NCBI GenBank assembly: GCA_964016885.1
Contig: OZ024740.1
Span: forward strand, 343,046,001 to 343,110,000
Direction: 5' to 3'
Length of the DNA: 64,000 nt
From: Eledone cirrhosa
Taxonomy: Eukaryota
Below are positions 13,001 to 13,951 of the stretch, one piece after another. Within the stretch, counting starts at the first letter, position 1. Each line of letters opens with the position of its first letter. The notes under the pieces are model-generated. The model was not told where the DNA came from, made no database searches, and saw only the letters and a list, made by a program, of their open reading frames with translations. The position numbers and the translations under genes are program-made.

Positions 13001-13826
13001 TTGTTTCGACACACGATTTCATAAAAAACCTCGCAAAACTAATTCATCGCCGTTATATATATATATATATATATAACGGATGTTGAGTGAGATGGTTACC
13101 AGTCAGAGTTTAGCTTTAAACTATCTCTGTTATTGTATTAAATATTTACTCTTGATTGGCCAGAGGTGTTTATTTCCAGGTACCTTATGAATTTGACTTT
13201 CCGTATTTATTACTGTTGTGAAATCTTGTGTTTTTTTTGGGTTGTAACTTCTCTGTTTTTTAGCCTAAGAAAATATATATATGCCGATGGATATAATTAC
13301 ATGCATACATTTATTTTCTTTAATTAATTGAGTTCTTTACACGAGGAATTGATATTAGTTTTGAAATAACTAATTAACCCGCGTGTGTTTTATATTTTAC
13401 TCTTAATTCGGCTGGAGATTTACATTCCCATTTGCCCTTTAAAGCATAACTTTCTGTATTTACTGCGGTTATGAGATGCGGTTCTTATTCGGGTACAACT
13501 TCTGATTTTAGCCTAAGAAAATATCTATATGCGTGTGTAATTTATACACGCATATATTTATTTTTTTATTTTCAATTGAGTTCTTAACACGTTGGATTGA
13601 TAATGTTTTCGAAAAAACTAATTAACCCGCGTGTATATTATTTTTTTTCCTCCTTTCGTGGATCGTAGTTGTCTCCCCTTCCCGCTTCGTGTCGCTATGA
13701 TACTTCTTCAGTCAAAAACTGCTGGAATTTCAAATTTGGCGGTCATTCGATGAGGGAAGGAGCAACTTAACAGACACGATTTTTGACTGCGGTAAGAATA
13801 TTTTCTTATATCAAAGTTTAATGGGC

Positions 13827-13951
13827 TTCCACTGATGATTTATAAGCGCCCACCTAAATATATTCTTACATGAATATATATTAGGCTTCTACATAAACTG
13901 GAAATATTTTCCCAACTTGTAGAAAACTTATAATGAAACAATTGTTTGGAA
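13827..13951 (+). ncRNA. Type I hammerhead ribozyme with extended branched stem II (unit 1)
   Basis: ttcca-CTGATGA-t-ttataag...cttataa-t-GAAA-caattg-TT-tggaa; stems I, II and III all pair. Confidence 0.75.

Follow-up and report, generated by a model that had tools for sequence, protein, structure and literature searches.

A type I hammerhead motif with a long branched stem II and a predicted pseudoknot in a non-coding tandem repeat

Positions 13822-13951 of the 64,000-nucleotide stretch of Eledone cirrhosa DNA analyzed here (the window) are a type I hammerhead motif, a predicted self-cutting RNA located in a non-coding tandem repeat of the family F1 (F1-F12 are our own family labels). Its predicted mode of cleavage is as a dimer. 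The active shape is probably held by a pseudoknot in which the sequence just 5' of stem I pairs with the junction strand atop a long stem II. All ingredients of this arrangement have been published: Penelope hammerheads of the dimer type, tandem retrozymes, pseudoknots joining stems I and II, and a U·U where stem II begins. A literature search of openly accessible text turned up no Penelope-type hammerhead in which a long or branched stem II is combined with a pseudoknot.

Architecture of the Motif

The core elements CUGANGA, GAAA, and NUH are present in type I order (Table 1), the cleavage triplet being GUU. The distance from CTGATGA to GAAA is 96 nt, and the arms of stem II enclose 80 nt that form two hairpins, both with a pair probability above 0.95 in the fold prediction. 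A U·U mismatch (13839/13934) replaces the usual first pair of stem II and is followed by a U-A pair. The motif region folds better than its shuffles (z -2.56; 3/200 shuffles).

The initial annotation, made from the sequence, had described a long branched stem II with two hairpins and a dimer-type stem III of 2 bp inside a self-complementary sequence. All of its helices and coordinates were verified, whereas the U·U mismatch, the GUU triplet, three further copies of the motif, and the repeat-family context had been overlooked. It had also anticipated that descriptor searches with a limit on stem II length would miss the motif, and a standard search does miss it: the Rfam hammerhead models gave no match at gathering in the whole window, and none of the 24 Rfam matches at E<=10 over 12600-14100 is a hammerhead. 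The miss is likely caused by the stem II insert. An intron inside the F1 insert was considered and rejected, inspection by eye having shown no splice signals.

Table 1. Predicted elements of the F1 hammerhead and the array that contains it (positions in the window)
Feature	Position	Strand	Remarks
F1 non-coding tandem array	13081-16556	+	units 995/711/995/711 bp plus ~65-bp 3' overhang, flanked by (TA)n tracts
Pseudoknot 5' strand, predicted (UGGGC)	13822-13826	+	contiguous with stem I; GGGC kept across three F1 subfamilies
Stem I 5' strand TTCCA	13827-13831	+	5 bp here; 4 bp in older F1 subfamilies
Catalytic core CUGAUGA (DNA CTGATGA)	13832-13838	+	N7 is the sole position varying between subfamilies
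U of U·U mismatch and stem II 5' arm	13839-13846	+	arm 13840-13846, 7 bp
Pseudoknot 3' strand, predicted (GCCCA)	13848-13852	+	0/5 columns vary across subfamilies
Hairpin 1, stem II junction	13853-13885	+	pair probability 0.99; double changes in 5/13 pairs
Hairpin 2, stem II junction	13887-13924	+	7-bp stem, interior variable; pair probability 0.95
Stem II 3' arm and second U of U·U	13927-13934	+	arm 13927-13933; U 13934
GAAA core, palindromic stem III, GUU triplet	13935-13946	+	GAAA 13935-13938; predicted cut after 13946
Palindrome ACAATTGT with stem III	13938-13945	+	stem III 2 bp as monomer; 8-bp self-duplex -6.4 kcal/mol
Stem I 3' strand TGGAA	13947-13951	+	pairs with 13827-13831
Second hammerhead copy (+711)	14533-14662	+	
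Third hammerhead copy (+995)	15528-15657	+	
Fourth hammerhead copy (+711)	16239-16368	+	core CCGAUGA

Conservation of the Fold

The fold was followed in an alignment of 26 F1 copies, picked for diversity and representing three subfamilies. In this alignment 91.8% of cells are paired, compared with 32-47% when the partners are slid. Double changes occur in 10/41 pairs, a count that comes from related sequences and not from independent events. Hairpin 1 contributes half of them (Table 1), and stem I contains one covarying pair, with U-A replaced by C-G in 7/26 sequences. The palindrome of loop III alternates between AATT and GATC (12 versus 12 sequences), and this switch between two palindromes supports the 8-bp dimer helix. 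Hairpin 2 (98.9% paired, with no double change in the alignment) and stem II (96.7% of cells paired, 0/7 columns varying across subfamilies) are nearly invariant and are thus conserved without covariation support. In general, paired and core columns are conserved between the F1 subfamilies, while flanks and loops have diverged; the three helices around the core are kept by pairing, with stem II opening on the U·U. Covariation among homologues, proposed with the initial annotation as a check, is thus found in hairpin 1, in stem I, in the loop III palindrome and, as described below, in the pseudoknots of families F4 and F7; it is lacking at subfamily level in the F1 pseudoknot.

Several features of the core might indicate that the motif no longer cuts usefully and that its fold has been retained for recognition by the Penelope reverse transcriptase or for RNA dimerization. 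GUU is a non-optimal cleavage triplet, and it occupies the cut site in 74/77 F1 sequences. The U·U at the base of stem II is likewise counted as non-optimal and speaks against our best explanation; the core variant CCGAUGA is common in the large family F2; and Penelope-type hammerheads have been published as low-activity (PMC4209133). We regard such a loss of cutting as very improbable. Catalytic positions other than N7 are unchanged across the subfamilies, an active axolotl hammerhead has a U·U (PMC7229834), and U·U is described as the best-tolerated mismatch at the base of stem II (PMC3088659).

Families of Hammerheads with a Long Stem II

Pattern searches for motifs with core halves ~40-100 nt apart yielded 518, 3,406, 699, and 835 matches, with 85, 0, 25, and 171 in the reversed controls. 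The contrast between 3,406 matches and none in the respective control demonstrates that the motif is not a chance occurrence. Net of controls, the genome contains ~5,000 long-stem-II matches. The patterns demand a U on either side but no stems, so that this count takes in broken copies, has slight overlaps between patterns, and misses motifs of other form. F1 accounts for 13/30 loci sampled from the 3,406-match pattern. Filters on stem I, stem II, and truncated flanks retained 149/196 distinct motifs, which form 17 families at 70% identity; clustering at 62% gave only 2 groups and was uninformative. A self-complementary loop III is seen in 8/17 families, the chance expectation being ~1 in 16. 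Long-stem-II forms are a minority, as follows from the 29,127 pattern matches of the short-stem-II family F3.

In families F2 (locus L113) and F12 (L182, L188), a long-stem-II motif follows a GIY-YIG-like ORF with a cysteine linker and precedes (TA)n. The top Atlas match for these ORFs is a eukaryotic GIY-YIG cluster (0.95), and Pfam named 2/9 ORF fragments, leaving those from F2 and F12 unnamed. These loci are read as the 3' ends of Neptune-like Penelope elements, based on the linker and GIY-YIG-like motifs, on BLAST among the fragments, and on Atlas. The Neptune clade features used for this assignment follow in part a published description of the clade (10.1101/2021.04.23.441226).

Two further observations concern the surroundings of these motifs. 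AATAAA, a possible polyadenylation signal, occurs within ~15 nt past the predicted cut in L113, L182, L188, L189, and L153, all from long-stem-II families without the 5' pseudoknot; F1 has no such AATAAA. The start of a Penelope-like ORF in L259 is closely preceded by an F3 motif.

The Predicted Pseudoknot

The initial annotation had suggested that TGGGC, immediately 5' of stem I, pairs with GCCCA in the stem II junction. The two strands are indeed complementary over 5 bp and conserved in F1, and pairing at this place covaries in other families, although not between the F1 subfamilies; support for the F1 pseudoknot is in this sense indirect. Overall, we think it quite likely that the F1 pairing forms.

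The evidence from F1 itself is conservation. Across its three subfamilies, 1/10 columns vary in the pseudoknot strands, versus 7/12 in the adjacent flank and 16/27 in the stem of hairpin 1. No subfamily-level covariation of the pseudoknot is seen in the 26-copy alignment, its two double changes being single copies, and the outer pair is broken in 6/26 copies. Genome-wide searches for compensated copies gave no enrichment and were uninformative in both directions: a matching flank change was found in only 2 of the first 100 listed among 117 copies with a changed G in GCCCA, and a compensating A in 2/19 GGGU copies. The variant GACCA of L207 was rejected as a subfamily variant, being a single-copy change; 8/11 copies listed of the L207 subfamily have GCCCA.

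Other families provide a second line of evidence. We compared the 13 nt upstream of stem I with insert positions 5-18 against permuted pairings. For the 17 families this cross-family test gave p=0.001, and four positional controls gave p=0.27-0.77. With F1 removed the value is p=0.008, ranging over 0.0003-0.085 across choices of window and clustering, and the windows were set after some of the tested families had been seen. A pre-specified replication set of families with N7=A/G (36/61 motifs kept, 13-14 clusters) was weak: it gave p=0.03, a value driven by F4, which was already in the first set, and accompanied by one control at p=0.01-0.02. The two sets pooled yield p=0.001-0.02.

Flank-to-junction pairing recurs, with different sequences, in other families of the same genome, and changes inside these families are the clearest evidence for it. 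For the F4 pair closest to stem I, a hand tally of the first 100 listed of 322 matches gave 58 G-C, 33 A-U, and 9 mismatches, so that 91/100 listed matches are paired; this amounts to one subfamily-level event. In F7, the counts for one pair of the helix are U-A 8, U·G 3, C-G 6, and other 1 (17/18 copies paired), with a within-family covariation of p=0.01 and two outer pairs broken in 5-6/18 copies. F8 has ~8 complementary bp and no within-family covariation (p=0.77). The pairing is absent from many long-stem-II families, F2 included. Branching of stem II is particular to F1, and the other pseudoknot families resemble one long hairpin.

These data bear on the possibility that the F1 complementarity is functionless, the insert being neutral baggage, perhaps from a template-switch inversion, on a ribozyme of the minimal Penelope type. 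Matches of 5 bp are common by chance: at least 5 Watson-Crick pairs somewhere in the insert are available to 68% of random 15-mers from the repeat unit, while 0.9% have them at the strict position. This possibility would also agree with the lack of covariation in F1, with the many families that have no pairing, and with the inverted duplications that are frequent beside hammerheads in this genome. It is nevertheless improbable, given the low variation of the pseudoknot strands relative to the flank and to hairpin 1, the compensated changes that F4 and F7 show at this position, and the covariation of hairpin 1 itself.

Two observations on pairing in other families are recorded here. Locus L297 (G000:C1:176444800-176453800) is an F4 tandem array with a period of ~487 bp, in which most units have an uncompensated change in a pseudoknot strand. 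In F2, six A-U pairs can be drawn with the 3' flank; downstream-flank controls were null.

A different question is whether the pairing assists cleavage or restrains it. In nested folding, the pseudoknot helix alone reaches -27.8 kcal/mol, compared with -25.0 for the nested ribozyme fold, and in the nested ensemble its pair probability is 0.90 versus 0.03 for stems I and II. Such values would be expected if the pairing were real and acted as a brake, forming early in transcription, enclosing the core in a 21-nt loop, and delaying the cut so that uncut multimers survive as templates. A stem II longer than stem I is the reverse of the usual docking geometry, and the long stem II is thus a poor fit to it. 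The cut site is intact in genomic copies, and one natural hammerhead is reported to have a peripheral contact that lowers its rate (PMC3152364). Still, nested folding cannot score the pseudoknot together with stems I and II, so these energies do not prove mutual exclusion; in several families the position of the pairing relative to the two stems is constant, which is what a docking contact would show; and pseudoknots of this kind, when tested, speed cleavage (PMC3088659). We therefore consider a brake unlikely and prefer a pseudoknot that supports the active shape.

The F1 Repeat and a Possible Route of Its Propagation

The hammerhead is present four times in the F1 array, with cores at 13832, 14543, 15538, and 16249. 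The 995-bp unit contains an old internal duplication of ~260 bp (13134-13398 / 13386-13646, 70-74% identity), and the 711-bp unit lacks ~260 bp directly upstream of the hammerhead. A 191-nt query against the 3.0-Gb genome returned 2,097 first-look F1 candidates, 40 of them scored. In 30 loci the 5' ends of F1 are variable and the 3' end is fixed, some copies being longer than one unit. The TA tract begins 170-209 nt beyond the predicted cut in 84/92 F1 loci, and tandem spacings are 711-1,001 bp. The repeat was found in contigs of four organisms.

No ORF belonging to the F1 element was found in the examined F1 loci; among the fetched loci, neither a linked RT/GIY-YIG ORF within ~1.5 kb nor an autonomous Penelope partner was seen. 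ORFs near L135, L185, and L229 were rejected as partners of F1 because their positions are outside the element. In its anatomy F1 looks like a non-autonomous repeat that spreads through target-primed reverse transcription, and it is likely a non-coding, Penelope-mobilized retrozyme with ~2,100 candidate copies. Because F1 copies span the cut site intact and some exceed one unit, the copied template would have been either religated (circular) or uncut.

In the scenario that we favor, the 8-nt palindrome would join two copies within a multimeric transcript, and cleavage after GUU would free units of 711 and 995 nt. These would then become circles, and the reverse transcriptase and endonuclease supplied in trans by a Neptune-like Penelope element would copy them back into (TA)n sites. 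A circular-RNA route has been proposed for retrozymes (PMC4209133, PMC7229834, 10.64898/2026.07.22.740005), and among retrozyme dimers cleavage was reported in only 1/9 tested (10.64898/2026.07.22.740005). The pseudoknot adjoins both stem I and hairpin 1 and might bring these two together as a single stacked arm next to stem II and hairpin 2. It would dock stem I against stem II and help cleavage or religation, possibly in place of the loop-loop contact, and the two hairpins would be tolerated peripheral structure. In the Schistosoma motif, tertiary contacts raise ligation ~2,000-fold (PMC6155905).

Comparison with Known Hammerheads

The closest analogs are the minimal hammerheads of Penelope-like elements (Cervera and De la Pena 2014, PMC4209133). 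As here, these are of type I, with a helix II of 7-8 bp, a helix I of 4-5 bp, an extra nucleotide after A9, a palindromic loop III, and predicted dimer cleavage, and a genome contains many sequence families of them. Two differences can be described: (i) U·U in place of G10.1-C11.1 and (ii) a structured stem II insert of 40-100 nt with a predicted stem I/II pseudoknot, where Penelope-type motifs are described as lacking tertiary interactions (PMC6155905). Penelope-type motifs lie in the pLTR of an RT/GIY-YIG element; no linked ORF was seen in the fetched F1 loci, and the F2 and F12 motifs follow a GIY-YIG-like ORF.

Animal non-LTR retrozymes (PMC7229834; 10.64898/2026.07.22.740005) are similar to F1 in being non-coding tandems of low GC with one type I hammerhead per unit, and mobilization by Penelope-like elements via circular RNA has been proposed for them. 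Their units are ~170-400 nt, compared with 711-1,001 bp here, and the predicted F1 ribozyme does not have the canonical loop 1/loop 2 form.

Hammerheads stabilized by pseudoknots, including the human C10orf118 motif (Perreault et al. 2011, PMC3088659), share a Watson-Crick helix of at least 4 pairs that connects stem I to stem II, and U10.1-U11.1 and weak stems III are on record among them. These are mostly prokaryotic, often with a very short stem II, and the analysis excluded highly repetitive type I motifs (PMC3088659). In F1, in contrast, the partner strand belongs to the junction that tops a 7-bp stem II, within a dimer-type repeat.

The satellite RNA hammerhead of barley/cereal yellow dwarf virus-RPV is of type III, and its short pseudoknot reaches into a stem II that is extended. 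It resembles the F1 motif in combining a peripheral stem I/II contact with double-hammerhead cleavage, and differs in that it belongs to a plant satellite RNA and that the contact lowers its rate (PMC3152364, PMC6155905, PMC3185516). Further literature drawn on is PMC6765202, PMC10085705, PMC1636495, and PMC2777235.

Penelope-type hammerheads have been described as minimal, slow, and free of tertiary contacts. We tentatively suggest, as a possibility short of a probable one, that several thousand Penelope-associated hammerheads constitute an undescribed class, in which stem II carries a folded domain of 40-100 nt. The covarying flank-to-junction pseudoknot of a subset would be the tertiary contact thought to be missing in minimal dimeric hammerheads; it would stack stem I, the pseudoknot, and hairpin 1 into one arm and tune cleavage and religation for circular retrozyme replication. 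The class would be invisible to Rfam and to length-limited descriptors, making animal ribozyme counts too low; such an undercount is suggested by the ~5,000 long-stem-II matches found in a single genome, given that Rfam does not detect this form in the window. A family-wide natural pseudoknot with compensatory variants would allow the tuning of cleavage and religation to be tested directly. If 80 nt of branched RNA on stem II are indeed compatible with activity in a natural hammerhead, such a molecule could serve as a scaffold for engineered switches.

Other Hammerhead-Related Features of the Window

Several other features of the window are related to hammerheads. On the minus strand, 17975-18085 is a 5'-truncated copy of F2, a family with 1,806 first-look candidates in the genome; it has a palindromic stem III as in F1, an 8-bp stem II, and a 64-nt insert. 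The strand opposite this copy contains a strong sequence resembling a 5' splice site near 18013-18021. The near-perfect 47-nt inverted repeat at 17651-17697 starts with CTGATGA and was rejected as a hammerhead by the motif scan.

Upstream of the F1 array, the region 12270-12800 (+) holds a C-terminal fragment that by eye resembles a Penelope GIY-YIG endonuclease and has no Pfam match, followed by a degenerate short hammerhead at ~12750-12795. An 82-nt inverted repeat (12187-12268 / 12919-13000) looks like an inverted pLTR.

Short-stem-II hammerheads also occur. One, at ~54070-54115 on the minus strand, has a U·U and a GUA site, and members of the same family lie beside F1 in L105 and L195. The 3' halves of F3 short hammerheads are seen at 18715-18760 and 18940-18985, both on the minus strand. 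Two similarities between F3 and F1 were observed: the F3 variant L056 has the F1 5' flank, and an arm of the F1 hairpin 2 is similar to the F3 3' end in reverse complement.
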